From a virus (taxonomy: Duplodnaviria; Caudoviricetes), in the IMG/VR virus record IMGVR_UViG_3300030012_002303, positions 1 to 27,700 of that record: a stretch of DNA of 27,700 nucleotides, one strand, 5' to 3'. Positions within the stretch are counted from its first letter, which is position 1; the number at the start of each line of letters is the position of its first letter. A model generated the notes under the pieces. It did no database searches, was not told the origin of the DNA, and saw nothing but the letters and a program-made list of their open reading frames with translations. Shown here piece after piece: positions 8,557-27,700 of the stretch. The translations under genes and the position numbers were made by a program.

Positions 8557-8557
8557 A

Positions 8558-9816: not shown

Positions 9817-10070
9817 AGATACAGGATGAAAAGCTGGCTGAAGCCGCGTCTGAAATTATCAGCGACACCATTACCACACTCTGTGAGTTGGAAGTGGATC
9901 AGGATTACGCTGCCTATTTGTTGCTGTCCGCAGGCATGTGTCTGGCTATCACGGGCAACAGGAAAAGCCCCGTCATAGCTACTCAGATTCTGGCGGCGGC
10001 GATGATGGTTGCTAATCAAAACATTATTGGGAAAGAGGAGGAAGAGGATAATGAACCAAGATACCATTGA
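9813..10070 (+). CDS. Hypothetical helical protein
   Basis: GAGGA RBS, ATGA coupling. Confidence 0.7.
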   Translation: MKIQDEKLAEAASEIISDTITTLCELEVDQDYAAYLLLSAGMCLAITGNRKSPVIATQILAAAMMVANQNIIGKEEEEDNEPRYH

Positions 10071-10416
10071 TGATATGCAAATGCCGTTGGACGCAGGCCG
10101 TTGTCCCAAGTGTTCCGGTAATTTGTCTCTTAACAAGATGGATGGAAGGATTGCTTGTCCAATATGTGGGCTTGAGATTGTTGACAGTTGGATGATATCT
10201 GATAGGATAACAGATAGTAACGAGGAGTCTGATATGGAAACACATCTGATGCCAGATGAAGTCACAATCGCATCCAAAGAACCGAGGATGAAGTGGCAAG
10301 AAGCGGTGACCACTGTCGATAATGTCATACAAGAGTGGCTGATTGATCACGATGGTCAGAGCGAAGAACATGTGACTAATGTTCTTGCCGCATGGCATAG
10401 AATTTTACAGGGCTAA
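10051..10416 (+). CDS. Zinc-ribbon protein
   Basis: GAGGA RBS before ATG 10051; CPKC...CPIC. Confidence 0.65.
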   Translation: MNQDTIDDMQMPLDAGRCPKCSGNLSLNKMDGRIACPICGLEIVDSWMISDRITDSNEESDMETHLMPDEVTIASKEPRMKWQEAVTTVDNVIQEWLIDHDGQSEEHVTNVLAAWHRILQG

Positions 10417-10418
10417 TT

Positions 10419-10658
10419 ATGTCAAAAGATAATGTGGTTTATCTGCACAGTAAACTTGTGTTCAAAAAAGACCCCGTGCCTACGGTGTGTGAGGTCGCAG
10501 GACAGATGTTGAAGGACGTAGTTATTTTGGGCGAAGCAGAGGACGGGACAATCAAGATGATGACTACCCAACCTGACCCTGCCGAGATTATATATTACCT
10601 TGAGAATGCTAAGTATGCGATTCTCGCTGGAGGAATGGATGATGACGAAGGAAATTAA
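10419..10658 (+). CDS. Hypothetical protein
   Basis: 79-aa ORF continuing the operon. Confidence 0.65.
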   Translation: MSKDNVVYLHSKLVFKKDPVPTVCEVAGQMLKDVVILGEAEDGTIKMMTTQPDPAEIIYYLENAKYAILAGGMDDDEGN

Positions 10659-10845
10659 AGAGGAGATGTCGCCTGAGACACAGCAAATGTTTGATGTATG
10701 TGATCAGTACTGCGACGGAAAAATAAATTTAGAACAAGCGATAAAGAAATATCGTGAGTTTATTCCATCGGCAGATGACGAAGAACTTGAGATCCTTTTG
10801 ACAGGTTTTCATAGAGACAATGTTGTTAAACTGCCGAGGCCGTAA
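10642..10845 (+). CDS. Hypothetical protein
   Basis: GGAGG RBS; MTKEIKEEMSP...NVVKLPRP; abuts the helicase start. Confidence 0.6.
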   Translation: MTKEIKEEMSPETQQMFDVCDQYCDGKINLEQAIKKYREFIPSADDEELEILLTGFHRDNVVKLPRP

Positions 10846-12303: not shown

Positions 12304-12646
12304 ATGCCTGTTGCGCGGCATACTTTACAGAGTTGTTATCTGGTGAGCGAGATAGCTGGTACGGATACAACGCACAGGACCCAGTTTCGAGGTCCACATA
12401 CAAAAGACGGACACCCAGTTTCTTTTGGATGTCCGACAACAGGCGAGAGATTATTGAGCCGTTCTTTCTACGGCCCACAGTCTTCACGTCAAACAACAAG
12501 AGTTCACCTTTCGGGGTGAGAGCGATGAGGTCTATCGGACCTTGTTCAATGAAGGGAGTGTATACATAGCAGTTTTGGGACATCAACCAAGAGGCGGCGA
12601 TGAGTTCAGATCTTTTACCATCACGAACCTGATGTGCTGGTCTCAT
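12095..12646 (-). CDS. PD-(D/E)xK endonuclease-like protein
   Basis: GKRSELIA...PIDLIA...LFDVKT. Likely start is ATG 12646. The C-terminal tail overlaps the helicase antisense. Confidence 0.7.
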   Translation of the reverse strand: MRPAHQVRDGKRSELIAASWLMSQNCYVYTPFIEQGPIDLIALTPKGELLLFDVKTVGRRKNGSIISRLLSDIQKKLGVRLLYVDLETGSCALYPYQLSRSPDNNSVKYAAQQASNRHHGGGQVPTIDGLLHPTSSLIDQSCSEETLQCEHQPCPLSSGLHTSLDDADQSDAPDPQTEPVSQD

Positions 12647-12653
12647 TTTTCCC

Positions 12654-12683
12654 TTGACCCCCCGATCAAATATGAGATACACT
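12654..12683 (+). promoter_or_regulatory. Sigma70 promoter upstream of the RHH gene
   Basis: TTGACC-18 bp-TACACT. Confidence 0.55.
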
Positions 12684-12717
12684 AACACGGTAACATAGAA
12701 AGTATGAGGTAACAAAC

Positions 12718-12864
12718 ATGGACACCACGAAGTGGAAATCAGTAGCAGTGAACATTGACGTTTACAAAATTCTGAAGACACGAGCAGAGAAGAACGACAG
12801 GAGCGTCAGTGGTGAACTGGCTCACATTGTCAAGACAGCAACGTCTCAGGAAAAAGCTGCCTAG
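12718..12864 (+). CDS. Arc/ribbon-helix-helix DNA-binding protein (48 aa, not in ORF track)
   Basis: GAGGT RBS; MDTTKWKSVAVNIDVYKILKTRAEKNDRSVSGELAHIVKTATSQEKAA has the beta-strand / helix / RS-x-S / helix RHH pattern. Confidence 0.8.
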   Translation: MDTTKWKSVAVNIDVYKILKTRAEKNDRSVSGELAHIVKTATSQEKAA

Positions 12865-12957
12865 ATATTATAGCTGCTCACTATGGTTAAACTTAATGGC
12901 CCTTGAGCAAGGCACTATGGCCCCGACAAACGGACAAGGGGCAAGGAGGATCGAAGA

Positions 12958-13866
12958 ATGCAACAGATTGCATCTCTTATATCAAAACAACGTCAACTCA
13001 GTGCAGACATGGAGACTGATGAACAGGTATCTGTTCTGCAATCGTTGATAAAAAAACCACCTCAAAATTCAAGAGTCGTACAGATATCGCCAGAACTGGC
13101 AATGTATATTCTTGAGAACTTGAATGTGGGTAATCGAACACAAAAGGTACGTTCGATAAAACTTTACTCTCGTGACATGGCAAACAACAACTGGTCTTTA
13201 ACTGGTCAGCCCATCGTGTTTGGAAATCATGGCTATCTTCTAGATGGTCAGAACAGACTGGCGGGTTGTGTTCGTGCAGGAGTGCCGTTCACCAGTCACG
13301 CTGTGTTTGGTGTAGATCCTTCAAGCTTTGTGCATTTTGACATTGGCAAGAATCGTTCAGCGGCAGATGTATTCACGATTATGGGTATCAAGTACCCTCG
13401 TGAGACAGGCTTTGCAGTTCGGATGCTGTATGCGTGGAGTCGAGGCTTACCAGAAGCCAGAGGCATTGCTTTGAACAACGATGATCTTCGCACCATGTAT
13501 AATAAAATGGACACGGATCTTTTGGAACTTGCCATTAAGTTTTCAAAGAAAGCGAATCAAACGACAAGCTATCCTGTTTCTTCTTTAACATCTCTGTTTT
13601 ACACAGCCGCAAGGAAGGGTGACTTAGACTTGGCTAAAAAGTTTATGGAAGATTTGTCACAAGGCTTTGGCAAAGGGCCTCGTTCACCAATCAGATTACT
13701 GTTGGAAACAATTATTCGACTGAAAATGGACAAGACTGTGCCGCTCACGATGTTTATGTACAACATACTTTTAATTCGTACTTGGAACAACTACAAGCTA
13801 GGCAAAGCCAGCATGAAGAAAGACATGCAGTTCAATAAAAACGATGTCTTGCCAGACGTGTATTAA
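12958..13866 (+). CDS. ParB/Srx-like N-terminal domain protein
   Basis: NRTQK...YSRDM...W...PIVF...LLDGQNRL (DGQHR-like); AAGGAGG RBS. Confidence 0.7.
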   Translation: MQQIASLISKQRQLSADMETDEQVSVLQSLIKKPPQNSRVVQISPELAMYILENLNVGNRTQKVRSIKLYSRDMANNNWSLTGQPIVFGNHGYLLDGQNRLAGCVRAGVPFTSHAVFGVDPSSFVHFDIGKNRSAADVFTIMGIKYPRETGFAVRMLYAWSRGLPEARGIALNNDDLRTMYNKMDTDLLELAIKFSKKANQTTSYPVSSLTSLFYTAARKGDLDLAKKFMEDLSQGFGKGPRSPIRLLLETIIRLKMDKTVPLTMFMYNILLIRTWNNYKLGKASMKKDMQFNKNDVLPDVY

Positions 13867-13870
13867 CAAC

Positions 13871-13901
13871 TTGACATACCTCTGGGGAGTGGGTTTATAC
13901 T
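13871..13901 (+). promoter_or_regulatory. Possible promoter for replication genes
   Basis: TTGACA with TATACT at a non-optimal 19-bp spacing. Confidence 0.35.
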
Positions 13902-13957
13902 CTCCGTCACACCCGAAGGGGTAAAACTTAAACGTAGGAAGTACAGGAGATTGTACG

Positions 13958-14521
13958 ATGAGCGATGTGTTTTCGCTATTTGATGAGGAAGTCAATGCCT
14001 CTAAGTTTGACAAAGTAGACGGAGAGAAGGGCAGTACCCTGTCCAATCTCATCCGTCAATCAATGGAGGTGGATCAGAAGATTGCAGAAGCAGAGCAATA
14101 TCTGAAAGACCTTAAATTCCACAAACGCAAAGTGAATGAAGAAGACATCCCGAACCTGATGCAGGAGATGGGCATGGACTCTGTTACGGTCGATGGCAAC
14201 AAGGTTGCTTTACGGCAGTTTGTTCATGCGCGTATCGCCGACGACAAGAAGGACGAAGCGTTTACATGGCTACGTTCTATTGGCGAAGGAGACATTATCA
14301 AGAATGATGTAACTGTTTCGTTCAAGTCTGGCGAAGACAATATGGCTGGGGCTGTCGTCGATGACCTCCGCACTAAAGGTCTGGAACCCGCACAAAAAAC
14401 TCACGTTCATCCGCAGACGCTAAAGGCGTGGGTAAAAAACCGCATCGAGAGTGGTGGCGAAATAGACTTCGACACGTTCGGTGTATTTGTTGGAACTGAA
14501 GCTAAAATATCAAGGAGCTAA
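13958..14521 (+). CDS. Hypothetical protein of the replication module
   Basis: AGGAG RBS; N-terminal coiled coil; VHPQTLKAWVK motif; adjacent to SSB. Confidence 0.75.
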   Translation: MSDVFSLFDEEVNASKFDKVDGEKGSTLSNLIRQSMEVDQKIAEAEQYLKDLKFHKRKVNEEDIPNLMQEMGMDSVTVDGNKVALRQFVHARIADDKKDEAFTWLRSIGEGDIIKNDVTVSFKSGEDNMAGAVVDDLRTKGLEPAQKTHVHPQTLKAWVKNRIESGGEIDFDTFGVFVGTEAKISRS

Positions 14522-14523
14522 AG

Positions 14524-15321
14524 ATGGCTGAAGCAGCAGTAGTAAAAAAAGAAAGCACAGCAGTTGCTAATATCATGGACGATCTGTACGAAGCGGCAGG
14601 GCAGGGCATGGAAACCATTAGTGCAGATGATATGCAGATTCCGTTCTTGCGGATTCTCCAGCCTCTGTCACCACAGTTAATAAAGACTGACCCGAAGTTT
14701 ATCAAAGGCGCATCCGCTGGTGATATCTTCAACACCGTAACTGGTGAGTTCTGGGAAGCTGACGAAGGTGTGAACGTATTGATGTGCGCGTACACCACGA
14801 AGTTTCTGGAGTTTCAGTTGCGTGAGAACGGTGGTGGATTTATGGGTGAGTTGGATGCCAACAACCCAGACATTCGCCAGACCAACCGTGTCGGTTCAAA
14901 TGAAATGCTGCCGAACGGCAACGAACTTGTTCGCTCTGCACAGTTCCTTGTGCTTGCGTACAATGCTGACGGCATGACCGCGCAAATGATTTGTGACATG
15001 AAGAAGACACAGATGAAGATTGCAAAGCAGTGGAATACCCGTCGCGCTGGTCTAAAGATCATGCACCCAACCAAGGGCCTGTTCAACCCACCTATGTGGG
15101 CAGTGCCGTGGAAGCTGACCTCGATTCAAGAGTCCAACGACAAAGGTTCGTGGTTCGGCTACCAAGTTCAGCAGCTAGAGATGGAGTCCGTGCCTATGCC
15201 TGCGTTGCAAGAGGCAAAGCAATTGTATCTCTCTTACAGAGCGGGTGAGATTAAGATGAGTACAGGTGAAGACAGTCAGACCGACACGGTCACAACTGAC
15301 GACACAGACGTACCGTTTTAA
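14524..15321 (+). CDS. Putative single-stranded DNA-binding protein
   Basis: Acidic tail TDDTDVPF, ESNDKGSWF motif, and position before the primase. Confidence 0.7.
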   Translation: MAEAAVVKKESTAVANIMDDLYEAAGQGMETISADDMQIPFLRILQPLSPQLIKTDPKFIKGASAGDIFNTVTGEFWEADEGVNVLMCAYTTKFLEFQLRENGGGFMGELDANNPDIRQTNRVGSNEMLPNGNELVRSAQFLVLAYNADGMTAQMICDMKKTQMKIAKQWNTRRAGLKIMHPTKGLFNPPMWAVPWKLTSIQESNDKGSWFGYQVQQLEMESVPMPALQEAKQLYLSYRAGEIKMSTGEDSQTDTVTTDDTDVPF

Positions 15322-15327
15322 CCAGTT

Positions 15328-15366
15328 GGGGGCAGGGCCGATGACACCTTGCCCCCTTCCTCTCTT
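15328..15366 (+). terminator. Hairpin / putative leaky terminator after SSB
   Basis: GGGGGCAGGG-9 nt-CCTTGCCCCC followed by TTCCTCTCTT. Confidence 0.5.
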
Positions 15367-15380
15367 GCCCGGAGCAACTT

Positions 15381-16913
15381 ATGAACCAAGCTGAACGGTT
15401 CATGGCGGCGTTTGAAGGCTTTACTGCCGCACATGGACAGACACAAATATCAGATGAAAGACGCGCTGGAAAACAAAAGGCGAAGTCATTCATTGTTCGG
15501 AAGCCACTGACACTGGAACTTATCGTCGCACACCTTGAGGGTAAGCATGGCGTGGGTTCTATACCTATCAACGAAAACAATCAATGTAAGTTCGGTGCGC
15601 TGGACATTGACCAGTATCCACTGGATCTTGTTGCACTTGACAAGAAGCTGCGTGACAACGATATTCCATGTGTGGTCTGCCGCTCGAAGTCAGGTGGTGC
15701 CCACATCTTTTTCTTCTTTACAGAATTTTTTAGTGCAGGTGTTTTCCGTGACAAAGCCACAGAGATTGCTGCCTACCTTGGATACGGTGGCTGCGAAATA
15801 TTCCCGAAGCAAGAAGAGATTCTTGTCGAGCGTGGCGATGTTGGAAACTTCATTAACCTTCCGTACTTTGATGCGGAACAGACGATGCGTTACGCTGTCA
15901 AAGAAGACGGAGACGAAGCGGACCTTACCGAATTTCTGGGTATAGTAGAAGCCAGAAGAACCAACCCCAAAGATTTTGAAAAGCTACAGCTTGGTAAACC
16001 TGTCAACGAGTTTGAACAGTGGGCACCGTGCCTGTCGCATATGTTTAGTCAGGGCATACCAGAAGGTACGCGCAACACAGTTATGTTCGCTGCCGCTGTC
16101 GGTGCCAAGAAAGAACAACCTGAGAAGTGGAGAGAACGTCTTGAAGAAATTAATGTCAAATACTGTGCGCCCCCTTTACCAGCTTCTGAAATCGTCACTA
16201 TTCAGTCTCAACACGAGAAGAAGGAATATGGTTTCCCCTGTGATCAAGAACCCCTCAAGTCGTTCTGCAACAAAAGCCTCTGCAAAACGAAGACATGTGG
16301 AATAGGTAGCCACGTTCAGCATGTGGAGATCACTGGTCTGTGTGTGGTTAAGTCCGAACCGCCTGTCTGGTTCTGTGATGTAGGTGGTCGTCGTGTCGAA
16401 CTGACAACCGATGACCTGCAAACACCACAGCGTTTCCAGAAAGCCTGCATGGAACAGATTCATGTCATGCCTCCGATGATGAAGATGGCTGACTGGCAAG
16501 AGGTTGTGTCCATGTTGATGGACGGCATGAGTGAGATAGATGTACCAGAAGAACTTACCTATAAAGGCCAGTTCATGGACCTGTTAGAGGGCTTTTGTGA
16601 CGGTCGGGTACAAGCCCAATCCGCTGAAGAGATCGCACTTGGCAAGCCCTTCACGGACGAAGAAGAGGGGGTTACATACTTTAAGCTAGAGGCACTGCTT
16701 AAATACCTACGCAATCAGAAGTTTGACAGTTACAGCCGTGGTCAGATTCAGGAGCGACTGAAAGAATTAAACGATAACGGCACAGCCAATGGTCATAAAA
16801 GGTTTAACACAACAAAGGGTGACTCAAAACAAATGAGAGTCTGGTGGGTCCCGATGTTTAACACCGAGGTCCAAGTGCCAAGCATCCAGCTTGACAGTGA
16901 GGTGCCGTTCTAA
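15381..16913 (+). CDS. Archaeo-eukaryotic-type (AEP) primase with PriCT-like domain
   Basis: ALDID (DxD), RSKSGGAH, EIFPKQ, GNFINLPY; PriCT-like EGTRN; Cys cluster. Confidence 0.8.
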   Translation: MNQAERFMAAFEGFTAAHGQTQISDERRAGKQKAKSFIVRKPLTLELIVAHLEGKHGVGSIPINENNQCKFGALDIDQYPLDLVALDKKLRDNDIPCVVCRSKSGGAHIFFFFTEFFSAGVFRDKATEIAAYLGYGGCEIFPKQEEILVERGDVGNFINLPYFDAEQTMRYAVKEDGDEADLTEFLGIVEARRTNPKDFEKLQLGKPVNEFEQWAPCLSHMFSQGIPEGTRNTVMFAAAVGAKKEQPEKWRERLEEINVKYCAPPLPASEIVTIQSQHEKKEYGFPCDQEPLKSFCNKSLCKTKTCGIGSHVQHVEITGLCVVKSEPPVWFCDVGGRRVELTTDDLQTPQRFQKACMEQIHVMPPMMKMADWQEVVSMLMDGMSEIDVPEELTYKGQFMDLLEGFCDGRVQAQSAEEIALGKPFTDEEEGVTYFKLEALLKYLRNQKFDSYSRGQIQERLKELNDNGTANGHKRFNTTKGDSKQMRVWWVPMFNTEVQVPSIQLDSEVPF

Positions 16914-18427
16914 TGCAGACCACAATCTTTGGGCCACCAGGCACAGGCAAAACAACCAAGCTTATATCTATCGTCAAGCAGGAACTTGAAGATGGTACAA
17001 GGCCGGAGGACATAGCGTTCGTGTCCTTCAGCCGTAAGGCAGCAGAGGAGGCGCGGACTCGTGCGGCATCTGCTTTGAGTATGAACCCTAATCAGATGGT
17101 TTGGTTTCGTACACTACATTCAATGGCCTTTCAGTTTCTGGGTATCGGCACTAGGCAGGTACTTAGAGGGGCTGACTTCACACAACTTGGCAACATACTG
17201 GGCTTAGAGTTTTCCTCCAACTCTTCTCTAAGCATGGCAGATGGGCAACTCTTTTCTCCGGGCAAGGGTGGGGATGCTTATCTGTCCATGATCCAGTTAG
17301 CTAGGGTGCGTGGGGTCAGCCTCGAACAACAGTTCAGTGACACTAACAACAGGCATTTACACTATCAGCAAGTGAAAGTTGCAGAGCAGGTTCTCCATGA
17401 TTATAAGCGCGACACAGGTAAGCTTGACTTTGTAGACATGATTGAACGCTTTATAGCACAGGGCGAAGGACCGAGGTTGGAGGTCCTGATAGTCGATGAG
17501 GCACAAGACTTGGCCCCGTTACAGTGGCGCATGGTTCATGAGGTGTTGAAGCCACGAGCAAAGCGCATCTATTTTGCAGGTGATGATGACCAGTGCATCT
17601 ATTCTTGGATGGGTGTAGACGTGCGAGATTTTCTTAATGCATCTGATCATAAGACGGTGTTAGATAAGTCATATCGTCTTCCGCGAAACATCTATAACAT
17701 TGCGGATTCTCTAGTAAATCGAGTGGTTGTGCGACAGCCAAAAGTGTGGTCCCCTGTAAATGAGGCTGGGCAAGTTGTCTGGCATCACGACATCATGGAC
17801 CTCAATCTAAACAGCGGCGAGTGGCTGATCCTTGCTCGAACAAATTACATCGCAAACAAGATTGCAGCAGACCTCAAGGAGCAGGGTTACCTGTTCTGGC
17901 GCGAGGGTTCTGGTTGGTCCATCTCACCCAATGTACTAACTGGAATAGAGGTATGGCTTAAATTATGCAAAGGTTTAACAGCTACAGCGACGGAACTGAA
18001 AATATTATCCACGTTATTAAAATCGGATATCGTGGTCAGATCTGGAAGGAAGAAACTAGCCACCCTCGACAACGAAATTCCCTACCTTCTCGACGACGTA
18101 AAAGAGAACTTCTCTATCAGCGACTTGAAAGAGAAGCCTTGGTACGAAGTATTGAAAGTGGCAGAGCGGGAGAGAATATACATTACCTCTGCCCGACAGA
18201 GGGGGGAGAAGATCCTGACGGACAAGCCGAGGATCAAGATATCAACAATACACAAAGCAAAGGGTGGCGAGGCGGATAACGTCGCCCTTCTTTTAGATTC
18301 ATCTAGGGCCTGCGCTGAAAGCGAAGATCAGGACGGCGAGATTCGTACGTTCTACGTTGGTATGACTCGTGCCAAGAAAGCTCTGCATATCATCGAGTCA
18401 CAATCACAATATGGATTTGCACTATGA
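16913..18427 (+). CDS. UvrD/Rep-like SF1 helicase
   Basis: GPPGTGKT, VDEAQD, GDDDQCIY, ILARTN, STIHKAKGGEAD, YVGMTRAK. Confidence 0.93.
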   Translation: MQTTIFGPPGTGKTTKLISIVKQELEDGTRPEDIAFVSFSRKAAEEARTRAASALSMNPNQMVWFRTLHSMAFQFLGIGTRQVLRGADFTQLGNILGLEFSSNSSLSMADGQLFSPGKGGDAYLSMIQLARVRGVSLEQQFSDTNNRHLHYQQVKVAEQVLHDYKRDTGKLDFVDMIERFIAQGEGPRLEVLIVDEAQDLAPLQWRMVHEVLKPRAKRIYFAGDDDQCIYSWMGVDVRDFLNASDHKTVLDKSYRLPRNIYNIADSLVNRVVVRQPKVWSPVNEAGQVVWHHDIMDLNLNSGEWLILARTNYIANKIAADLKEQGYLFWREGSGWSISPNVLTGIEVWLKLCKGLTATATELKILSTLLKSDIVVRSGRKKLATLDNEIPYLLDDVKENFSISDLKEKPWYEVLKVAERERIYITSARQRGEKILTDKPRIKISTIHKAKGGEADNVALLLDSSRACAESEDQDGEIRTFYVGMTRAKKALHIIESQSQYGFAL

Positions 18428-18708
18428 AAGATAGAAAATTTTTTCTCGACACAGCCGAAGGTTTAATCAACGGTCCAAGGGCCAAGGAGTATGGACCTGC
18501 CAAGCTGAACCACATGCGTATTGCAGAGATATGGTCTATCATTCTGGCAAACAAACTAGACGAAGACATCACGCCTGAAGAAGTGGTGGCCTGTATGGTG
18601 GGCCTGAAGCTGGCACGTTTGTCAGAGGATATCAGCAAAGATGATTCATGGGTGGATATCATAGGATACGCTGCTTTGGGCGGGGAGATTATAAACGATG
18701 AAGGTTGA
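18424..18708 (+). CDS. DUF6378-like protein
   Basis: INGPRAKEYG...RIAEIWS...LKLARL...DSWVDIIGYAA. Confidence 0.8.
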   Translation: MKDRKFFLDTAEGLINGPRAKEYGPAKLNHMRIAEIWSIILANKLDEDITPEEVVACMVGLKLARLSEDISKDDSWVDIIGYAALGGEIINDEG

Positions 18709-20572
18709 TCTGTTTGACCCAGAAAGTGAAAGCTGGTTACCGCCGTCTGTCTTTCCAGACCTGACGGGCTGTGAAAGAATAGCGATTGACTTGGAAACAA
18801 GAGACCCGAATCTGACCACACTAGGCCCAGGCTGGTGTCGTGACGACGGGTATGTCATAGGGTATGCCGTTGCCGCTGGAGATTTTGTTGGGTACTTTCC
18901 TGTTCGCCACGAGTCCGGCAACCTACCAGAGAAGAAGGTTGTCAACTGGTTAAAGAAGCAATTGGCTACACCGCACATAGAAAAGGTTATGCACAACTGT
19001 ATGTACGACCTTGGTTGGTTGCGTTGGGCAGGCATAGAAGTACAGGGCAAAATCATTGACACGATGATAGCTGCGCCACTTCTGAACGAGAACAGGCGAT
19101 ACTATAATCTGAACTCTTTGTCCGGTGAATATCTGGGCGAATGGAAGAACGAAAAGATGCTGAAGTCTGCGGCTGATATGTACGGCGTTGACCCGAAAGG
19201 CGGCATGTGGAAGTTGGACTCCACGTTTGTTGGGCGGTATGCCGAACAAGATGCGGCGGTGACATTACGTCTTTGGGACAGGCTACGCGGTGACCTTGTC
19301 AACGATGAGTGCACTGGTATATTTGATCTTGAGTCAAGCCTGCTGCCTGTGCTTTTAGACATGAAGACACGCGGCGTAAGGGTTGACACAGATAAAGCCG
19401 AACAAGTTCAAAAGGAACTGAAGCGCAGAGAAGATGCACTGTTACTTGAAATAAAGGATCTTACCCAAGTCAGTGTGGAACCGTGGGTCGCCACATCTAT
19501 AGCAAAGGCGTTCGACGCTGTCGGGCTGACCTACGAGAGGACAAAAAATACGGATGCTCCGTCCTTTACAAAACAGTTTCTTGCGAATCATGAGCACCCA
19601 CTGGCGCAGAAGATTGTACGCCTTCGTGAGTTTAACAAAGCAAACACTACCTTTATCGAGACTATTCTTGAGCATTCGCATAATGGTCGTATCCATTGTG
19701 ATTTTAATCCTCTTCGTTCAGATGAAGGGGGCACAGTCACAGGACGATTTTCTTCGTCCAACCCGAACCTCCAGCAAATCCCAGCAAGAGACCCAGAAAT
19801 CAAAGCGATGATCCGTGGTTTGTTTATCCCAGAAGAGGGGTGTAAGTGGGGTTCTTTTGACTACGCCTCACAGGAACCACGCTGGCTTGCCCACTATTGT
19901 TCTACACTAAAAGGTGCGAACCGTCACCCACAGATTGATGACGTGGTTCAGATGTATCAAGACGGTGATGCTGACTTTCATCAAATGGTAGCGGACATCG
20001 CTGGTATCAGTCGTAAACAGGCAAAGACAGTCAACCTTGGTATTATGTACGGCATGGGCCGTGGCAAGCTGGCTGGTGTAATGGACATTACACAGGAAGA
20101 GGCGAAAGAATTGTTGAGTCAGTATCATGACAAGGTGCCGTTCGTGAAAGGTATGGCTGACCTTGCCATGAAGCAAGCTGAGAACAACGGTCACATAAGA
20201 ACGTGGCTAGGTCGCAAGTGTAGGTTTGACATGTGGGAACCTAAGTCATACGGTTATAATAAAGCACTGCCCTTAGAAAAGGCAGCGAAAGAATATGGCG
20301 GCAAAGCTGCCATTAAACGTGCCTTTACATACAAGGCACTGAACAGGTTGATCCAAGGATCAAGTGCCGACCAGACCAAGAAGGCGATGGTTGATTGCTA
20401 CGCAGAGGGATTGCTTCCCATGTTGACGGTGCATGACGAACTTTGTTTCAACATCGAGAGTCAGGAACAAGCGGACCGGATAGTCGAGATTATGACAACC
20501 TGCGTTCCTAACTTGAACATACCCTTTGAGGTTGACGCTGCAATCGTAAACAACTGGGGAGAAGTGGAGTAG
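18698..20572 (+). CDS. polA: Family A DNA polymerase with 3'-5' exonuclease (Leu762 type)
   Basis: Exo motifs DLET, HNCMYD, YAEQD; polymerase motifs TGRFSSSNPNLQQIP, DYASQEPR, RKQAKTVNLGIMYG, TVHDEL. Confidence 0.97.
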   Translation: MKVDLFDPESESWLPPSVFPDLTGCERIAIDLETRDPNLTTLGPGWCRDDGYVIGYAVAAGDFVGYFPVRHESGNLPEKKVVNWLKKQLATPHIEKVMHNCMYDLGWLRWAGIEVQGKIIDTMIAAPLLNENRRYYNLNSLSGEYLGEWKNEKMLKSAADMYGVDPKGGMWKLDSTFVGRYAEQDAAVTLRLWDRLRGDLVNDECTGIFDLESSLLPVLLDMKTRGVRVDTDKAEQVQKELKRREDALLLEIKDLTQVSVEPWVATSIAKAFDAVGLTYERTKNTDAPSFTKQFLANHEHPLAQKIVRLREFNKANTTFIETILEHSHNGRIHCDFNPLRSDEGGTVTGRFSSSNPNLQQIPARDPEIKAMIRGLFIPEEGCKWGSFDYASQEPRWLAHYCSTLKGANRHPQIDDVVQMYQDGDADFHQMVADIAGISRKQAKTVNLGIMYGMGRGKLAGVMDITQEEAKELLSQYHDKVPFVKGMADLAMKQAENNGHIRTWLGRKCRFDMWEPKSYGYNKALPLEKAAKEYGGKAAIKRAFTYKALNRLIQGSSADQTKKAMVDCYAEGLLPMLTVHDELCFNIESQEQADRIVEIMTTCVPNLNIPFEVDAAIVNNWGEVE

Positions 20573-20575
20573 AAA

Positions 20576-20785
20576 ATGTTTACAGCAATCTTAGTAGCCT
20601 GTCATGCCTACACAAACGTAGGTTGTTTTATGCTTACTGATGACAGGGGTCCATACAAAACTATGGAACAGTGTGAAGAACGCATCGATGAGATGTTAGC
20701 CAACACGATAAAGGTGTGGCTTGATCACAAAGCACCGTTAGTTGTAACAGGATGGAACTGTAAAAGAGATGTATCAGAAACCTAA
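20576..20785 (+). CDS. Small protein with hydrophobic N-terminus and several Cys
   Basis: GGAG RBS; MFTAILVAC... Confidence 0.6.
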   Translation: MFTAILVACHAYTNVGCFMLTDDRGPYKTMEQCEERIDEMLANTIKVWLDHKAPLVVTGWNCKRDVSET

Positions 20786-20951
20786 GTGCTGGTCATGTGG
20801 ACATGACCTAATATGGGGCGGTGATCATGACAGTGAAGATGCAGATGGCAGAGAATATATTGAATCAAACCTGTCCTGCCCTAACTGTGATGCGTTTTAT
20901 CTGTACTTTCAGCCCCTAGATTGCGATTCTGAGCGACCTGAAGGTAGTTAG
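20769..20951 (+). CDS. Small zinc-ribbon protein
   Basis: CWSCG-x-LIWGGDHD...NLSCPNC. Confidence 0.7.
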   Translation: MYQKPKCWSCGHDLIWGGDHDSEDADGREYIESNLSCPNCDAFYLYFQPLDCDSERPEGS

Positions 20952-20957
20952 ACACGG

Positions 20958-21134
20958 CTATCGTTGCTGAAGGCCCTGAGAATCGATGTTTTTATTTAGT
21001 AAAAACAAACACATAGAAAAAGGAAGGGACTTGCCCTTCCTTGTGTAAGACCCCTTACCTTTGCGGGGCTTGACTATTTTGAGCCTGAATCGTCGTAGTT
21101 TCAGGCTTCTTGCGACTGGGTTTTTGGTTCGCAT
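20958..21134 (-). CDS. arfA: ArfA-like alternative ribosome rescue factor (58 aa, not in ORF track)
   Basis: AAGGAG RBS; MRTKNPVARSLKLRRFRLKIVKPRKGKGSYTRKGKSLPFSMCLFLLNKNIDSQGLQQR. Compare E. coli ArfA ...[21 protein letters not shown]. Confidence 0.8.
   Translation of the reverse strand: MRTKNPVARSLKLRRFRLKIVKPRKGKGSYTRKGKSLPFSMCLFLLNKNIDSQGLQQR
21015..21042 (-). terminator. Intrinsic terminator inside the arfA-like ORF (end of late operon)
   Basis: Minus strand AAGGAAGGG-CAAGT-CCCTTCCTT-TTTCT. Confidence 0.75.
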
Positions 21135-21268
21135 GCTACTTCTCCTTGACAGCAGTCATCGATTATCTGACCACATGTAACACATTGTTCGTGTCCGTGT
21201 ACATAAACTGTCTTGAGATTGCCCTGACACCGTGGGCAGCGGGGTGAGCAGTGTTCCTTACTCTCCAT
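21101..21268 (-). CDS. Small Cys-rich zinc-ribbon protein (55 aa, not in ORF track)
   Basis: MESKEHCSPRCPRCQGNLKTVYVHGHEQCVTCGQIIDDCCQGEVACEPKTQSQEA; overlaps the lysozyme stop and the arfA start. Confidence 0.7.
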   Translation of the reverse strand: MESKEHCSPRCPRCQGNLKTVYVHGHEQCVTCGQIIDDCCQGEVACEPKTQSQEA

Positions 21269-21719
21269 CTGCCAGTGCCCTCATGCGTGATACCAAACGA
21301 CGTGCGCGATTTGGCACCTGCGTATACCACTTCGAGTCGACCATCTGATCGGCTGCTTCATTGAAGTCTCGTGCGTCTACCCCTGCCTTCATTCCGACAA
21401 ACTTTGACAAGCGGGGATGCCCCAGGTTGAACATCATGTTTGCAATGATAAGCTGACATTCTTCTGGTAGGTCGTTCCAGTCTGGGTACAGGCGGTGACA
21501 GTCCTCAAGTGTAACAGCGATGTCCAATTTAAACACGTTGTCCACACGTTCCTGTTCAATGACTGTACCAACAGGTTTGCCGTACTCAGGGTCGTCTTTC
21601 TTAATGAGGTGACCAATTCCAAAAGTTGGTAAATTTAGGTGGTCCAAATATATTTCGTACTTGCAGCCCTCGTCGGAGGCAAGCTCCTGACGTAGCTGAT
21701 CTATGGTTGTTGATTTCAT
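21258..21719 (-). CDS. T4-like phage lysozyme (GH24 muramidase)
   Basis: Catalytic E-x8-D-x5-T in DEGCKYEIYLDHLNLPTFGIGH; NMMFNLG; SKWYTQVPNRA. Confidence 0.9.
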   Translation of the reverse strand: MKSTTIDQLRQELASDEGCKYEIYLDHLNLPTFGIGHLIKKDDPEYGKPVGTVIEQERVDNVFKLDIAVTLEDCHRLYPDWNDLPEECQLIIANMMFNLGHPRLSKFVGMKAGVDARDFNEAADQMVDSKWYTQVPNRARRLVSRMRALADGE

Positions 21720-24700
21720 TGTTGTGTCCTCTGGAAAATCTGTAAGTTCTTCAGCGCATCGATTGGATTGCCGCCGGAAAGTAATGGAAGTATACCACCA
21801 CTGCTCTGTGATTGTGAAGTAGGTGCGGGAGCCGCCGTTGTTTGGGCAGGAGCGGCCCCCGCTTGCGCTACCGCCGGAGGAGTTGCGGTTGCTGCAACTG
21901 GTTGTTGTTGTACTGGCTCGACTGATACTTGAGGTTGAGGTTCTTTTGTTTCCACCGCCAGAGGTTTGTTAGCATATTCTTTTCTAATTTTTGCTATCTC
22001 TTTTACAGGAAACTCACTTCTTAAATCGTTGTCAAAAATGTTTTTCTGAACTGTTCTACTCACGCTCACGGGAATAAACTTTCCAGACAAGGTAGCACTT
22101 AATTGCCTGCCCGAAACTCTAGCTGCTCTTAACTGAGTAGCAATTTGTCTTTTGTTCATGCCAAGAGTTTTCATATCATTAACAATGTTAAAAAGCTCTC
22201 GTTGAATTTTAAAGTTTGCCTCGTTAGCCGCTCTATACGCGTTTATAAAATCTTGTGGTGTTGCGTTAGCTCTGTTTGAAACCGCTGTAAATATGTTGTT
22301 TGCATTTCTTCTAGCTTCAGCAATCTCAAAACCTCTGAACTTTAAACCAGTTGGTTCAATAGGCATTTCAGTAATGCCCGTAAAAGCACGAGCTAATTCT
22401 GAAGACAATTCTCTTTCTCTCTTCATTCTATCCACAGATGAGATGCCAAGAGTCTCTTCTAAGTTAAGACCATTTACAAAACCACGGGCAAAGCGACTAG
22501 CTTCGAGTTCACCAGAGCGAACGTCCACAGGTATGACGGACGGAAGCAAACCATCTAATACATGAAGAAAGCTTTTTCCAAACTTAGCCCCCACAGAATC
22601 TTCTGGATTATACACTCTTGCGCCTGTTTGTGTCTGACCCCCGCGTCCGCCAGTAAGTTGTCCTGCCTGACGAAAACCAATTACATCTGTGGCTGGATCA
22701 AGCACGTCACGAATCTTTGCAGTGATAATCGCCTCTTCGGTGAATGGAGCAAACAGTTCAGCGAGTGAGTCATTTGCTGCCTTTAAAGTAATTTCTGCGC
22801 CGCTCTTACCTTGCAGCCGTCCTTCTTCAGCCCCGTTGATGGCAGCAATAGCTATTTTTTCTAACATGTCGTATGGATTAGAATAGCTATAATTTATATA
22901 TGTGGGCAGGCCAGTTTTTTTGTCTATGCCTGTGGGCAAGAGCCTTGCATTCTTTTCCCAACGAGGTCCCAGTGACCGCTGATACGCTTTCATTTTTTCT
23001 TCACTAACACCTGACAGTTCGTATGCCAGCGCAGACATTCCTGCGGGTAACGCACCAAATGTTGTGATAGCACCAGTTAATCGACGCAGTCCAATCTGTC
23101 TAATTTCTGGTATCTCACTTGCTAACTCATCCACACCACGAGCAATTGTGTTCGCCCCTGTTCTAAGAATCTCATACGGAAAAGCTATGAAGTTACCAAC
23201 AGGTGCCCGACGTAATGTTCTTATTGCCTCTGGTGCCATGTTGTAGTTTGGCACTGTATTGCGGACAATACGAGCAGCTTCTTCTCGTAGAAGTCTTTCG
23301 GCTGTCTCTTCACCAGTAACGGTTATACCACGACGTTTTACCAAGTCAGCGACGATTGCATCGTCAGTTAATCCTGCCTTACGATATGCGTTTTTCAACT
23401 TGTTTAGTTCAAAATCAAAGTTGTATATCTTCCATATGTCATCCCCTGCTTGGTATAGATTCTCAGCTTTCTTACCCAGGTTTCCTACAAAAGCTCCCAA
23501 CTGATTGTCTGTAAATTTACTACCAAACTTTCTGCCAACAGGTATGCCGTTGATTTCCTCCACACCATAACCAAAACCTTTTTGAATTAGGTCTTGCAGT
23601 TCTCGAAGCTGTGCCTGTGTGCCAATAATTCCAAGTTCTTGTAGCTCAGAAAAAGTTCGAGCTGCCTGTTCCGGTGCCACGCCAGTAAACAAGTTGTCGT
23701 AAACCAGTCGAACTGACTCGCCAAGATTTGCACCTCTACCTATATTGCCTTGTGCAAGAGCAAATAGTGAAGCTGTGGTTACGTTTCTAAGCTGAGTGAT
23801 CGGAGACAAGACCGTCTTACCAAATTGTGTAGCACCTTTAACTCTAAGAAAACCTGAATAGGTAGACCTGATAGCATTACCTAGAACACCTTGATCTCCG
23901 ATAACAAGTCTTGTTAGGTCTTGTGCTATTTTATCGGGCACAGCAAAGCCACGAAGAGACCCAAAGTCTCCCTCATCTAGTTTTAGTTTTGTGCCTTGAG
24001 GTGTGGTGTCAGAGTCTAATATTTTATACCCAGAATCTGTAAGCTCCTTTCTTTGTGCTGGAGACATTTCTGTTGTGTCTCTGAAGAGTTGAGCTATCCC
24101 TGGGTTAGCTAATGAACCATCAGCTTTTCTCTGCGTAGCCAAAAGACGAATCCTTGAGAAGTAATCATCTACAGCTTTAAACTCTGCTAAGTCAGCTACG
24201 GTTCCAAGAAAACTTTCTTTTGGGTCTGTAATCTCACCCAATAGTTCACGCTTAAACTTCGGCATGTTTGCTCTGCTTGCAAACAGCTTTGCATTTATTC
24301 TGTGGTCTGCCACTCTTGAAGTACTTCCAAGTTTACCGCTTCCCACTTTTCTTGTGTTGTTTCCTAAAAAGTTCCTTGCCGCTCTTTCCGCTGCTGCTCT
24401 AGAAATATTGTTGGGGTCTACAAACTCAAAGATAAGTCCCTCATCAAATTCAGGGGACATGGTTTCTCTCATACCAAACTGACGCAAAAGGTCCTCTCGT
24501 TCAGCGGGAACGTTGCTTTTGTTAATAATCTTTGATAGTTCTTCAAGAGTTGCTGCTGGACTTTGTTGAAAACCAACAACACCTTTTTCAAACGCTTCGT
24601 TCGTAGGAGTGTAGTTTTTCACTTCAAAAGATTGATAACGCCTGCGGAGATAAGTGTTTATGTTTTTGTTTATCTCACCTCTTAGTCGAGCAGATTCTTT

Positions 24701-26050
24701 TGGATTTATGTCATCCATTCTTTTTAAGAAATCACTTTCTAAAACATTCTTATTCAAAGACTGGATAAGGCCGCGCATGTTCTTGGCCTGTTCAGCAACA
24801 TTATCTGGAAGCTCTGCAATAGCACGATCCCGCATCTGTTGTGTCGGAGCAGTCATAAACTCTTCGATGTTGTTAAACATACTTTGTTTGGTTAAAGGAC
24901 TTGCACCATTTGAAACCTTATCTGCTTCCTTCAAAACTTTGTTTATTTCTTTATCCATAGAACCAAGAATGTTCTTGGCAGTCTTGATGATTGCATCAGT
25001 CTGTCCTGTAACAAGCAGTCGTGCCTCTGCGACTTCTTCTGGCATAAACCCACGATAGCGGAACACGGAAGCTATATCAGCCAACTTGTCAGCAACAATG
25101 TTTTGTTGTTGCCCTAACGCACGTCTGGCTTCAATGTTTTGCAGACCTTCAGAAACTTTTCTTCCAGCAGACCTGACTCCGGTAGCCGTTCCTCTGACCG
25201 CTTCTCTTAGAATAGGTGTCTCAGTTAACACTTTTCCTGTTGTTGCAACAGTCCCGGCTATAGCTACGGGGGCAACGGCAGTAATTGTACCAGTTTCAAA
25301 TCCTACTTTAAGTTTATTGCCTAGTCTGCGCAGGGCTTCTTCTCTACCTGAAAGACCAATCTCTTGGTTTGTTTGTGTAGGGCCACCTTCAAAGAAATCA
25401 CCAATTGTTGTAATACCATCTGTTGCAACCACCGCATCTGCAAGACCTGCGGCAGCAACCTGTTGTGCCCCCAAAGCTAGTTTCTCACCCTGTGTCAAGT
25501 CTCTTGTAGGGCTAGACTTTGCAGCAGGTCGAATGGTTGTAGGTGTTTGTTTGGAGACTATCTGACCATCTTTGATTGCCTTGCGAAGTCTACCAGCTTT
25601 ACTGAACTTACTGACTTTGCTTACCGCGCTGGCTGCACCAAGACCGGGTATAACAAATTGAGTAATTACTTCTGTGCCTTTGCCAACCAGACCAACAGGG
25701 TCAATGCCTGCGGCATCGCGCAGCTTGTTGGCAGCGTCAGTAACAGAAGATGCATAGTCGGTGTCAGCCGCAAGGTCTACGACCGAAGCACCGAGTTCCA
25801 AGATTCCCTGTGGTATGCCGATCAGACCAGAACCAACGCCCTCAAAGAACTCTTGCGCCACACCTTCATACTCAGGATCTGGGTCAGGGGCAGGCTGTAC
25901 TTCTGGAGAGGCCGTTTGCGCAGGCTCTTGAACTGCGGAAAAGTCTACACGTTTTTTTACAGCCTCAATGATCTGCTCTCGTGTAGCACCTTCCGGTCCC
26001 TCGATGCTGTAGGTTTTACCATCAGGACCTTGAATACTATAGGTTGGCAT
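21716..26050 (-). CDS. Large internal virion / DNA ejection protein
   Basis: 1444 aa, largely helical; N-terminus TYSIQGPDGKTYSIEGPEG; Gly/Ala-rich membrane-like segments; INYSYSNPY motif; located at the end of the structural module. Confidence 0.7.
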   Translation of the reverse strand: MPTYSIQGPDGKTYSIEGPEGATREQIIEAVKKRVDFSAVQEPAQTASPEVQPAPDPDPEYEGVAQEFFEGVGSGLIGIPQGILELGASVVDLAADTDYASSVTDAANKLRDAAGIDPVGLVGKGTEVITQFVIPGLGAASAVSKVSKFSKAGRLRKAIKDGQIVSKQTPTTIRPAAKSSPTRDLTQGEKLALGAQQVAAAGLADAVVATDGITTIGDFFEGGPTQTNQEIGLSGREEALRRLGNKLKVGFETGTITAVAPVAIAGTVATTGKVLTETPILREAVRGTATGVRSAGRKVSEGLQNIEARRALGQQQNIVADKLADIASVFRYRGFMPEEVAEARLLVTGQTDAIIKTAKNILGSMDKEINKVLKEADKVSNGASPLTKQSMFNNIEEFMTAPTQQMRDRAIAELPDNVAEQAKNMRGLIQSLNKNVLESDFLKRMDDINPKESARLRGEINKNINTYLRRRYQSFEVKNYTPTNEAFEKGVVGFQQSPAATLEELSKIINKSNVPAEREDLLRQFGMRETMSPEFDEGLIFEFVDPNNISRAAAERAARNFLGNNTRKVGSGKLGSTSRVADHRINAKLFASRANMPKFKRELLGEITDPKESFLGTVADLAEFKAVDDYFSRIRLLATQRKADGSLANPGIAQLFRDTTEMSPAQRKELTDSGYKILDSDTTPQGTKLKLDEGDFGSLRGFAVPDKIAQDLTRLVIGDQGVLGNAIRSTYSGFLRVKGATQFGKTVLSPITQLRNVTTASLFALAQGNIGRGANLGESVRLVYDNLFTGVAPEQAARTFSELQELGIIGTQAQLRELQDLIQKGFGYGVEEINGIPVGRKFGSKFTDNQLGAFVGNLGKKAENLYQAGDDIWKIYNFDFELNKLKNAYRKAGLTDDAIVADLVKRRGITVTGEETAERLLREEAARIVRNTVPNYNMAPEAIRTLRRAPVGNFIAFPYEILRTGANTIARGVDELASEIPEIRQIGLRRLTGAITTFGALPAGMSALAYELSGVSEEKMKAYQRSLGPRWEKNARLLPTGIDKKTGLPTYINYSYSNPYDMLEKIAIAAINGAEEGRLQGKSGAEITLKAANDSLAELFAPFTEEAIITAKIRDVLDPATDVIGFRQAGQLTGGRGGQTQTGARVYNPEDSVGAKFGKSFLHVLDGLLPSVIPVDVRSGELEASRFARGFVNGLNLEETLGISSVDRMKRERELSSELARAFTGITEMPIEPTGLKFRGFEIAEARRNANNIFTAVSNRANATPQDFINAYRAANEANFKIQRELFNIVNDMKTLGMNKRQIATQLRAARVSGRQLSATLSGKFIPVSVSRTVQKNIFDNDLRSEFPVKEIAKIRKEYANKPLAVETKEPQPQVSVEPVQQQPVAATATPPAVAQAGAAPAQTTAAPAPTSQSQSSGGILPLLSGGNPIDALKNLQIFQRTQQ

Positions 26051-26058
26051 GGCTCCCC

Positions 26059-27699
26059 CTAGCTTGTAGCGTCGGTTATGTTTACTTCTCCGAACCCGTC
26101 ATCTACTGCTGCGTCTTGTGTCTGCTGTATTTGTTGCCTTCCTAAAAAGTCAAATATATCTTCTGGTGACGCTCCGTACTGATCTTTAGCCGCTGTTTTA
26201 TATGCCTCACTTGACATTGCCAATTCTCTATCTCCTGGCAGTGGCCTGTTCTGCAAAACTCTAGTTAAAGCCGCTGCTTGTTGTATTGGAACAGCAACTT
26301 TACCTGTTGAGGTAGAAAGAGCGGTTTCTTTTTTAGCAAAGTCTTGAACGAAGTTAACAAGAAAACCTTCAGGTAAAGCCTCCTGGCCTTTCTCATTTAA
26401 AACAAGAACACCGTCGTCATTAACTGTAGCCATTCCTGTATCTAGTAACAGTTTACCCGTTTCGCTATCAGGCAACATATTTTTTCTAACAGTTTCGTTT
26501 AATGTGTCTCGTTGTATCTCTAAACTTTGATCTTGATAGTTTTGTTTTTGAAGTAATGTTATGGCATTTATTTCAAAGGTGCTTCTTATTTGTGCTATTT
26601 GATTAGCTAATGTCGCTTCTCTGTAGGCTTTCTCATCTTTACTTTTTTCAAAGTCCATCATGTTTTGAATCTGTCTTTGATTGAAAGCGTCATCAGCAGC
26701 AGCTTTAGCGATGTTTGCTTGCTTCTCACTTTGAATTAAATCAAAACGAAGACGACGTGCCTCTTTTTGGTCTTCTCTTTCTTGCTCTGTAAGCTCACCT
26801 ATACGCTTGCCATACTGATTAAACGCAAAGCCAAGGCCCTTTGCGATATTTGTCAAAGCATTCTGACTTTCACCCGCAGCTATTGACAAACCTGCCGTAA
26901 TTACTGCGTTCCAAAACGCGCCCTTCCTGTCTTCTTTTGCTTGGTCAGGATCAAAGCCAACAGTTTCTTTCACCAATTTGTCTATGGCTTCAAGGTCTAC
27001 TTCATCAGGCGTAGCTCTTTGCGCTAGTTTCCCTGCAAAAGCGGCAAAGGTGCTGTCCTTTTCTCCCTGCTTGGGATTAATTTTGTTGGTGGCTTTTCCG
27101 CCCGTCAAAGAGGCGTTAAGATTAGCATCAAGTTTTGATAAAGTATCTCTGATATTTAAGGTTGTTTGTTTAGGATTATCAGAGGCGTTAATCTCTTTGT
27201 TTGCTGCGGCAGCAGTGTTTTGATTTTCGGCAAGCTCTTCCGCTGCTGTTTTAAGTTTGATAGCACCCGCCATACCCGCTTCTAAATCATCGTCCACAGC
27301 AGAATATCTTCTTAGGTCAGGGGTAAATTTCTGATCTGCTCCTGTCACAGGTGAACCAGCAATATCTACTGGAGCATCCAAGTCTCTTTCCGCCAGTATC
27401 TGTTCCCTTGTTTTACCTACCCCAGCGGTAGGAGTTGCGGGACCCAAACCACCTTCTTCACCAACCGGATAGTCTAAGCCAGTAGCGTATTTAAGAGACT
27501 GTACACCGCTTGTCAGTGCATCACGAATACCCTTATCCGCGTCTGGTCCAAACACTTCACTAAGGTCTTTACTAATTGTCTGACGAGCAATTCCTGCCCG
27601 ACGAGAAACCTCATCAGTAGCAGCACCTATGGCAGCAGGAACATCAGGGCCTATTGTAGCTCCGAACCCTGCTTTCGTAAGTTCTTCTGCCTGTTGATT
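26059..27699 (-). CDS. Internal virion / ejection protein (5' truncated)
   Basis: Frame is open to the window end; hydrophobic AVITAGLSIAAG...ALTNIAKGLG followed by coiled coil. Confidence 0.65.
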   Translation of the reverse strand, partial: NQQAEELTKAGFGATIGPDVPAAIGAATDEVSRRAGIARQTISKDLSEVFGPDADKGIRDALTSGVQSLKYATGLDYPVGEEGGLGPATPTAGVGKTREQILAERDLDAPVDIAGSPVTGADQKFTPDLRRYSAVDDDLEAGMAGAIKLKTAAEELAENQNTAAAANKEINASDNPKQTTLNIRDTLSKLDANLNASLTGGKATNKINPKQGEKDSTFAAFAGKLAQRATPDEVDLEAIDKLVKETVGFDPDQAKEDRKGAFWNAVITAGLSIAAGESQNALTNIAKGLGFAFNQYGKRIGELTEQEREDQKEARRLRFDLIQSEKQANIAKAAADDAFNQRQIQNMMDFEKSKDEKAYREATLANQIAQIRSTFEINAITLLQKQNYQDQSLEIQRDTLNETVRKNMLPDSETGKLLLDTGMATVNDDGVLVLNEKGQEALPEGFLVNFVQDFAKKETALSTSTGKVAVPIQQAAALTRVLQNRPLPGDRELAMSSEAYKTAAKDQYGASPEDIFDFLGRQQIQQTQDAAVDDGFGEVNITDATS

Positions 27700-27700
27700 G

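Follow-up and report, generated by a model that had tools for sequence, protein, structure and literature searches.

A conserved phage gene of the ArfA family with a terminator-like hairpin inside its reading frame

Does a short open reading frame at the end of a late phage operon encode a ribosome rescue factor of the ArfA family, and in what form would such a protein be made? We addressed this question in a 27.7 kb IMG/VR virus record of a marine phage, analysed over its whole length and called the window here (estimated completeness 48%, GC content ∼46% across the record). The frame lies on the minus strand at 20958..21134, running from an ATG at 21134 through 58 codons to a TAG stop, and is translated as MRTKNPVARSLKLRRFRLKIVKPRKGKGSYTRKGKSLPFSMCLFLLNKNIDSQGLQQR. 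An AAGGAG ribosome-binding site is located at 21142..21147 (-), 7 nt before the ATG and within the preceding Zn-ribbon ORF; it is kept in 14 of 15 aligned relatives and reads CAGGGAG in the remaining one. There is no upstream ATG, GTG or TTG in the open arfA frame, which reads LLSRRSS before the methionine. The original prediction had described a 58-codon ORF with this ribosome-binding site, and we recovered both at 21134..20958; it gave no strand and missed a terminator inside the frame.

A search of Pfam placed the product in PF03889 (ArfA) with an E-value of 3.3e-7 and a score of 30.1 bits against a curated cut-off of 25.5, so that the predicted family assignment was upheld by the profile. 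The alignment was partial, with query residues 16-35 on profile positions 23-42 of 44. A six-frame PF03889 search of the record scored 29.5 bits; of the 14 genomes searched as controls, E. coli alone was positive. The ORF product had no match in NCBIfam, and in PHROGs only a weak one, to a family without assigned function. In the PDB, six distinct chains of E. coli ArfA matched with E-values of 0.005-0.013 (ArfA entries there include 5MGP, 5MDV, 5U4I, 5H5U and 7OJ0). This alignment sets query residues 10/11-35 on ArfA 18/20-43/44, and phage residue n therefore corresponds to E. coli ArfA residue n+9. A word-based protein search recovered six close relatives (79-98% identical), all with PF03889 and one named ArfA by its source. 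The motif KGKGSYTRKGK (K25-K35) lies in a basic C-terminal segment of the kind with which ArfA lines the mRNA entry channel, and aligns with ArfA 34-44. The motif is conserved, KGKGS.TRKGK being invariant, together with L11, in 11 diverse phage homologues. Chance similarity was rejected on the Pfam score above the cut-off, the matches to ArfA in the PDB and the presence of the same gene in 19 of 53 viral loci. Taken together, these sequence comparisons indicate that the phage ORF is a genuine and conserved gene, and that it belongs to the ArfA family.

It closes a structural/lysis (late) operon on the minus strand, which faces a replication block on the plus strand, in agreement with the supply of the factor late in infection that had been proposed earlier. 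Upstream in the same minus-strand block are a 1,444-aa virion protein, an endolysin (Phage_lysozyme, 21258..21719) and a 55-aa CxxC...CxxC zinc-ribbon ORF (21101..21268), which overlaps both the endolysin stop and, by 34 nt, the start of arfA. Both overlapping frames, Zn-ribbon and arfA, are preserved in relatives, as in the change of TGA to TAA in L007. The replication block, with two helicases, a primase and DNA polymerase A, ends at 20951; its last ORF (20769..20951, plus strand) stops 7 nt from the arfA stop. Elsewhere in this block (plus strand; 4610-5284, 13958-15321 and 18424-18708) are genes for GP88, Pam3 gp33-like (DUF7307), Pam3 gp34-like and DUF6378 proteins, and several ORFs beside them match no family. 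No tRNA genes were found in the record. By terminase the nearest cultured relative is Pelagibacter phage HTVC027P (59.7% identity), with phage 023Pt_psg01, DSL-LC04 and HTVC023P next in order, the nearest terminases being 53-60% identical. A DNA search of phage records using a 1.4-kb region gave no match.

A pattern scan revealed a terminator-like hairpin inside the ORF at 21020..21042 (-), composed of AAGGAAGGG / CAAGT / CCCTTCCTT. The 9-bp stem and 5-nt loop begin at the third base of codon 31 and end at the first of codon 39: the 5' arm consists of the last base of the T31 codon and the R32-K33-G34 codons, and the 3' arm covers the codons for S36-L37-P38 plus the opening base of F39. The sequence directly after the hairpin is TTTCTATGTGTTTGTTTTT, and the U-rich run TTTCTATGTGTTTGTTTTTA (21000..21019, minus strand) contains no in-frame stop; the run is short, with five U followed by C. 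The hairpin has a folding energy of -13.2 kcal/mol (z -4.1), which 0 of 200 shuffled sequences equalled. It ranked third among the listed terminator-like sites of positions 8000-27700, where such sites are common (31 found vs 17.4 ± 3.7 expected). A reading as a bidirectional terminator was rejected, as no T-run follows the hairpin on the plus strand. RNase III cutting appears less likely than termination, given a stem of only 9 bp.

The hairpin is maintained among relatives. Its loop varies (CAAGT, CAAGC, CAGAA) with the stem still paired; L007 and L013 show G-U wobbles, and L008, L010 and L013 have two additional stem pairs. In none of the 19 type A loci, which carry the short gene, is the frame interrupted by a stop from the motif to the U-run. 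Among 30 distinct homologues, some short and others long, 86.6% of cells were paired, a value reached by 0 of 500 shuffles, with the caveat that related sequences can beat shuffles without any structure. Pair 12-31 was GC in 12 of these homologues, AU in 8, GU in 5 and another combination in 5, and synonymous AGG/AGA in the Arg codon coincides with CCT/TCT (Pro/Ser) on the opposite arm. The covariation score was 0.187 vs 0.131 ± 0.016 in shuffles of the 30 homologues. The covariation evidence is only moderate, because sliding the partner by -1 gave 0.204, as high as the true register. The hairpin is also retained in many long forms that have no U-run.

We consider it likely, from the arrangement of hairpin and U-run, that RNA polymerase terminates at the hairpin and produces a non-stop arfA message. 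A transcript ending in the U-run would be stop-less, since the sequence contains no in-frame stop before 20960, and we infer an mRNA 3' end at about 21011-21015 (-), 7-9 nt after the stem. A T7-type RNA polymerase (PF00940) was not found in the complete genome of HTVC027P or in the records of two relatives, of 89% and 76% completeness. This is consistent with reading of the terminator by the host RNA polymerase and gives weak support to it, as the control was also blank. Contig X1 from an RNA library (20980..21241) spans the terminator; being unstranded, it may represent read-through RNA, a convergent transcript or DNA. The metatranscriptome data are Logan contigs from four runs of one study, of low depth, unstranded and blind to 3' ends, in which uncovered parts carry no meaning.

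We then compared selection along the ORF. For the alignment we took 15 distinct type A sequences out of the window and 19 loci, leaving out four duplicates and one cut copy; pN/pS sums run over pairs of related sequences and the counts are not independent. The conserved ArfA core comprises codons 1-35 (21030..21134, minus strand; MRTKNPVARSLKLRRFRLKIVKPRKGKGSYTRKGK) and is marked out by pN/pS, codon-position bias and the invariant motif. Purifying selection is evident at codons 12-30 (pN/pS 0.09 in 15 sequences), where nine variable codons are synonymous only vs five with amino-acid changes, and the variable sites number 1/5/11 by codon position. In the hairpin codons 31-39 the ratio rises to 1.6 with no synonymous-only codon, and it is 7.0 in codons 36-44 and 0.65 in the colinear tails (codons 43-58, 10 sequences). 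The tail, codons 42-58 with the stop (20958..21011, minus strand), is unconserved as protein and corresponds to non-coding DNA in relatives that lack arfA. The sequences diverge after the U-run, one subgroup differing by an 18-nt gap, and the in-frame stop falls at codon 56, 58, 72, 88 or 114 among relatives. A reading of the hydrophobic tail (FSMC...) as a lipoprotein or lysis peptide was rejected, since a Trp codon can stand in place of that for Cys and the tail is unconserved. On the basis of these alignments, the tail is probably outside the functional product. A product of ∼40 residues is thus probable, because of the hairpin, the relaxed hairpin and tail codons, the wandering stop and the non-coding nature of the tail in relatives without the gene. 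This departs from the 58-aa product first proposed, as the conserved internal terminator predicts a protein of ∼40 aa made from a non-stop mRNA.

Of the 53 related viral loci, the 19 with the short gene (L002-L020) are 74-100% identical to it, and 21 encode long forms of 100-140 aa in which the ArfA core lies between an N-terminal extension and a conserved C-terminal domain. In eight further loci a short gene ends at a true stop 0-5 codons past RKGK; these include Caulobacter phage Cr30 (L037), whose record has no feature annotated under the match. Four loci (L048-L050, L052) are without the gene and matched through tail DNA only, and one (L053) was a chance match. In the four gene-less loci the tail DNA of the window directly follows the endolysin stop, with neither the Zn-ribbon gene nor arfA. 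In L098-L101, a short stretch separates the tail DNA from a Zn-ribbon gene 92-94% identical to that of the window; arfA is absent, and its former ATG is immediately followed by TGA. The same type of junction was present in a seawater metatranscriptome contig, where 21008 is joined to 21117 with 11 other letters between. Since close relatives lack arfA with or without the Zn-ribbon gene, arfA is a presence/absence polymorphism (window 21009-21116). The occurrence of tail DNA in gene-less relatives indicates that the last ∼16 codons are ancestral non-coding DNA and that arfA, together with its terminator, is an accessory cassette.

The Zn-ribbon ORF had 132 viral relatives. In the best 80 of these, an ArfA-like gene came next in 42 (17 short, 25 long) and was missing from that place in 35, and three were too short to tell. 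In the 25 long forms, of 118-232 aa, further conserved domains come after the ArfA core. The arfA position, with an unchanged start context behind the Zn-ribbon gene, is taken by long proteins of 100-232 aa in L021-L036, L038-L041, L054, L102-L109 and L116-L134. One recurrent, highly conserved domain of ∼60 aa after the core reads GNYTKP..RK..F..IK.G.KGG..GQWSARKAQMLA..YK.AGGGY, and other long forms have different basic tails. For the C-terminal domain of the long forms there was no Pfam family, and the Atlas gave only viral hypothetical clusters, with a DUF5872 lead at 0.82.

The phage protein is small, like E. coli ArfA (YhdL; found in gamma/beta-proteobacteria), and shares with it a basic tail and the KGKGSY.RKGK motif. 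A conserved Asn precedes the motif at the same spacing of 20 residues in both proteins, and phage N5, L11, F16 and R17 align with N14, L20, F25 and R26. The phage gene also has a hairpin before its stop, predicting a non-stop mRNA. However, the first nine N-terminal residues of E. coli ArfA are absent. The protein had been said to lack roughly the first 10 residues: the shorter N-terminus is borne out, and the PDB alignment sets the count at nine. In an ungapped extension of the same alignment, Arg9 stands opposite A18 and Ala replaces E17. An anchored, ungapped comparison showed that the gamma-type D-N-A-[IL]-[EKQ]-A becomes N-[PA]-x-A-[KR] in the phage subtype, and this replacement accounts for Arg9 opposite A18. 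The K-H motif is also missing, K35 being followed by S36; the residue after K35 is S, P, T, G, V, E or K in relatives, and some of the bacterial ArfA proteins fetched here are likewise without H after K. Passages of a review (PMC8012679) bear on these differences: residues 1-26, the N-terminal/helix segment, activate RF2, with A18 critical; an A18T change blocks this activation; the N-terminal 14 residues become ordered with open RF2; the K-H motif binds a pocket of the mRNA entry channel; and ArfA 1-40, without the RKGK segment, is inactive. A complex prediction with E. coli RF2 and the 40-residue product (score 0.01, mark 0.32) weighs neither for nor against an interaction.

The arrangement of the gene recalls the expression design of bacterial rescue factors. 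According to parts of PMC8012679, the arfA stem-loop causes premature termination or RNase III cleavage and hence a non-stop mRNA, the truncated ArfA has full activity and escapes solely under an overload of trans-translation, and the last ArfA residues are poorly conserved. The same sections describe BrfA (YqkK) of Bacillus subtilis as a small RF2-dependent factor, whose gene has a rho-independent terminator before its stop codon; the resulting non-stop mRNA is gated by trans-translation, and it is by this expression design that we liken the phage gene to brfA. Two features of the ArfA/BrfA design are present in the phage gene, namely a hairpin or terminator before the stop, by sequence and conservation, and poorly conserved, dispensable codons after the hairpin. 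We fetched 28 bacterial loci with the motif for comparison. Providencia has a long stem lying further downstream, before the stop, whereas the 9-bp phage terminator starts within the motif codons. In Vibrio mimicus the stem of the terminator contains the stop codon. In Clostridium species and a Saprospiraceae contig the 5' arm of the terminator starts in the YTRK codons, as it does in the window. The ORFs of Clostridium (L075-L077, L080-L082) and Saprospiraceae (L060) are small and ArfA/BrfA-like, and some Clostridium stops fall right at the stem end.

The phage subtype is also found in bacteria. PF03889 matches were obtained in 67 of 101 genomes (50 above the cut-off) from the family of an uncultured Pelagibacteraceae genome, and one such gene is chromosomal, lying among housekeeping genes in a 490-kb contig. 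The matches (L065/L166, at G001:C1:309377-309469; L167-L169; G001-G101) are ORFs of 34-42 aa with true stops. They share the subtype and the short N-terminus of the phage protein (for example MSKKNPIAKTLRTPMFKKKVVKPKKGKGSFKRKK); unlike the phage gene, they lack an internal hairpin and end at a true stop as soon as the basic tail is complete. Its chromosomal position among housekeeping genes and its occurrence in 67 of 101 genomes suggest that the N-[PA]-x-A-[KR] subtype is probably a working cellular factor. This weakens the idea that the phage supplies a route that its host lacks. In a survey of 15,259 genomes, Table 1 of PMC11633108 lists arfA in 0 of 2,376 Alphaproteobacteria, 699 of 2,704 Gammaproteobacteria and 37 of 1,000 Betaproteobacteria. 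Small-ORF rescue factors are probably under-counted, because the subtype is common in Pelagibacteraceae, which belong to the class with no arfA in that table. A literature search found no paper joining ArfA, Pelagibacter and trans-translation.

The explanation we favour, with a confidence only slightly better than even, is that of a conserved ArfA-family gene whose in-frame terminator yields a non-stop message gated by tmRNA, and whose product would act in RF2-dependent rescue. The host RNA polymerase would stop at the hairpin, making the arfA message itself non-stop. Its product would be ∼40 residues long (MRTK...KGKSLPFS), equivalent to E. coli ArfA ∼10-50 and retaining the RKGK segment. By analogy with arfA and brfA, this peptide would be ssrA-tagged and degraded as long as host tmRNA-SmpB is free. 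Were trans-translation saturated late in infection, for example by decaying or cleaved mRNA, untagged peptide could accumulate, bind the empty mRNA channel of ribosomes stalled at stop-less mRNA 3' ends and likely recruit host RF2, with peptide release and the recycling of ribosomes for phage protein synthesis. The internal hairpin, in predicting a ∼40-aa product from a non-stop mRNA, implies that synthesis would be gated by tmRNA, in contrast to the tmRNA-independent supply first envisaged. Weighing against this explanation are Arg9 opposite A18, the missing N-terminal nine residues, K-S in place of K-H and the bridging contig X1. The non-stop gate would not be universal, as HTVC027P gp30, Cr30, L042-L047 and L051 have ordinary stops after the motif.

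The same observations can be arranged differently. The protein could be an ArfA homologue for which the hairpin is a mere operon terminator, the full 58-aa form being made constitutively late through read-through or stop-containing transcripts. Such a role would suit a hairpin that sits exactly at the required end of the late operon, facing the convergent block, as would the RNA-library contig that bridges it and the plain stop codons of several phage ArfA genes. We nevertheless regard it as unlikely: a full-length product is hard to reconcile with a tail that is unconserved, ends anywhere from 56 to 114 codons and is non-coding DNA in arfA-less relatives, and with the lack of any stop between motif and U-run in the 19 type A loci. 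A different concern is whether the protein rescues at all. Its basic tail might fill the vacant mRNA channel and keep out tmRNA-SmpB or ArfB while leaving RF2 inactive; phage peptides could thereby escape tagging, or host quality control could be altered. An Arg in the place of E. coli A18, a residue whose change to Thr is already enough to block RF2 activation, and the absence of the first nine residues and of the KH motif are what such a competitor might be expected to have. Yet the same short-N-terminus subtype (N-[PA]-x-A-[KR]-x-L) is chromosomal among housekeeping genes in the 490-kb Pelagibacteraceae contig, and a pure inhibitor is unlikely in a family with PF03889 in 67 of 101 genomes; L11, F16 and R17, moreover, align with ArfA L20, F25 and R26. 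Both the competitor role and these effects of it therefore seem improbable to us.

The long forms raise the question of which form came first. If the ArfA-like segment were the ribosome-channel anchor of a larger phage protein, the short form might be a truncated remnant with a reduced or different role, and long forms do outnumber short ones in the best 80 Zn-ribbon relatives (25 and 17), with the same start context. The short-form core, however, is strongly constrained (pN/pS 0.09), its terminator is conserved with a better U-run than in the long forms, and short ArfA-like genes occur in other phages and in bacteria, and we give a remnant little credence. That the frame is no gene, being a chance ORF over a terminator region, we hold to be very improbable: it is short, below the usual ORF cut-offs, and its 3' third is non-coding-like, whereas the Pfam match above the cut-off, the third-position-biased variation, the well-spaced ribosome-binding site and the preservation of both overlapping frames all speak for a gene.

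Should the tmRNA-gated peptide work as predicted, phages would have kept the bacterial trick of gating a rescue factor through a non-stop mRNA. Late phage translation capacity would then be tied to the host tmRNA load, and possibly to mRNA-cutting defences or toxins. The locus also offers a natural series for gauging the worth of the factor, with no gene, a short gated gene or long fused forms. As a broader and tentative proposal, to which we give somewhat less than an even chance, the stop-less arfA may be sensor and effector in one, answering the exhaustion of host trans-translation with an RF2-dependent rescue factor of the phage itself; N-P-x-A-K/R-x-L, with its short N-terminus, may be an undescribed subtype of SAR11-like bacteria and marine phages; and in sister phages the module, fused to conserved domains of no known family, may place these at the ribosome mRNA entrance.

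Phage ArfA genes are already known by annotation, and the window gene adds another. The expectation that such genes might be in databases was correct, with annotated examples in Citromicrobium phage RXM, Brevundimonas phages and HTVC027P (gp30). A tblastn search of cultured-phage records returned 18 matching records; in six of them, those of RXM and five Brevundimonas phages, the gene is labelled an alternative or putative ribosome-rescue factor. The four weakest matches (E about 4) were methyltransferases and were set aside as chance matches. In the relevant passages of PMC8953757 and PMC12753301, respectively, RXM g10 and HTVC027P gp30 are named ArfA by annotation only, the latter being highly expressed early and late in infection. 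A full-text literature search gave no further paper on phage-borne ArfA besides these two, whose passages on phage ArfA make no mention of a non-stop design in a phage. All of these genes (including that of Brevundimonas phage Kikimora) resemble the window gene in encoding small, basic, PF03889-type proteins. HTVC027P gp30 differs in lying before the small terminase gene and in having a true stop right after a weaker motif (KGRGSFKR), with no hairpin, and the Brevundimonas phage genes differ in encoding 36 aa with a true stop. In Roseobacter phage CRP-212 (L055, 3001-3126) we noted an unannotated 41-aa ArfA-like ORF, out of frame in the 3' end of gp38. RXM g10 (L057, 1486-1668) shares the internal hairpin, with an 11-bp GC-rich stem in the RKGRSKGLPF codons, ∼20 codons before the stop. 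The layout seen in the window thus recurs in RXM, an unrelated phage of 62% GC.
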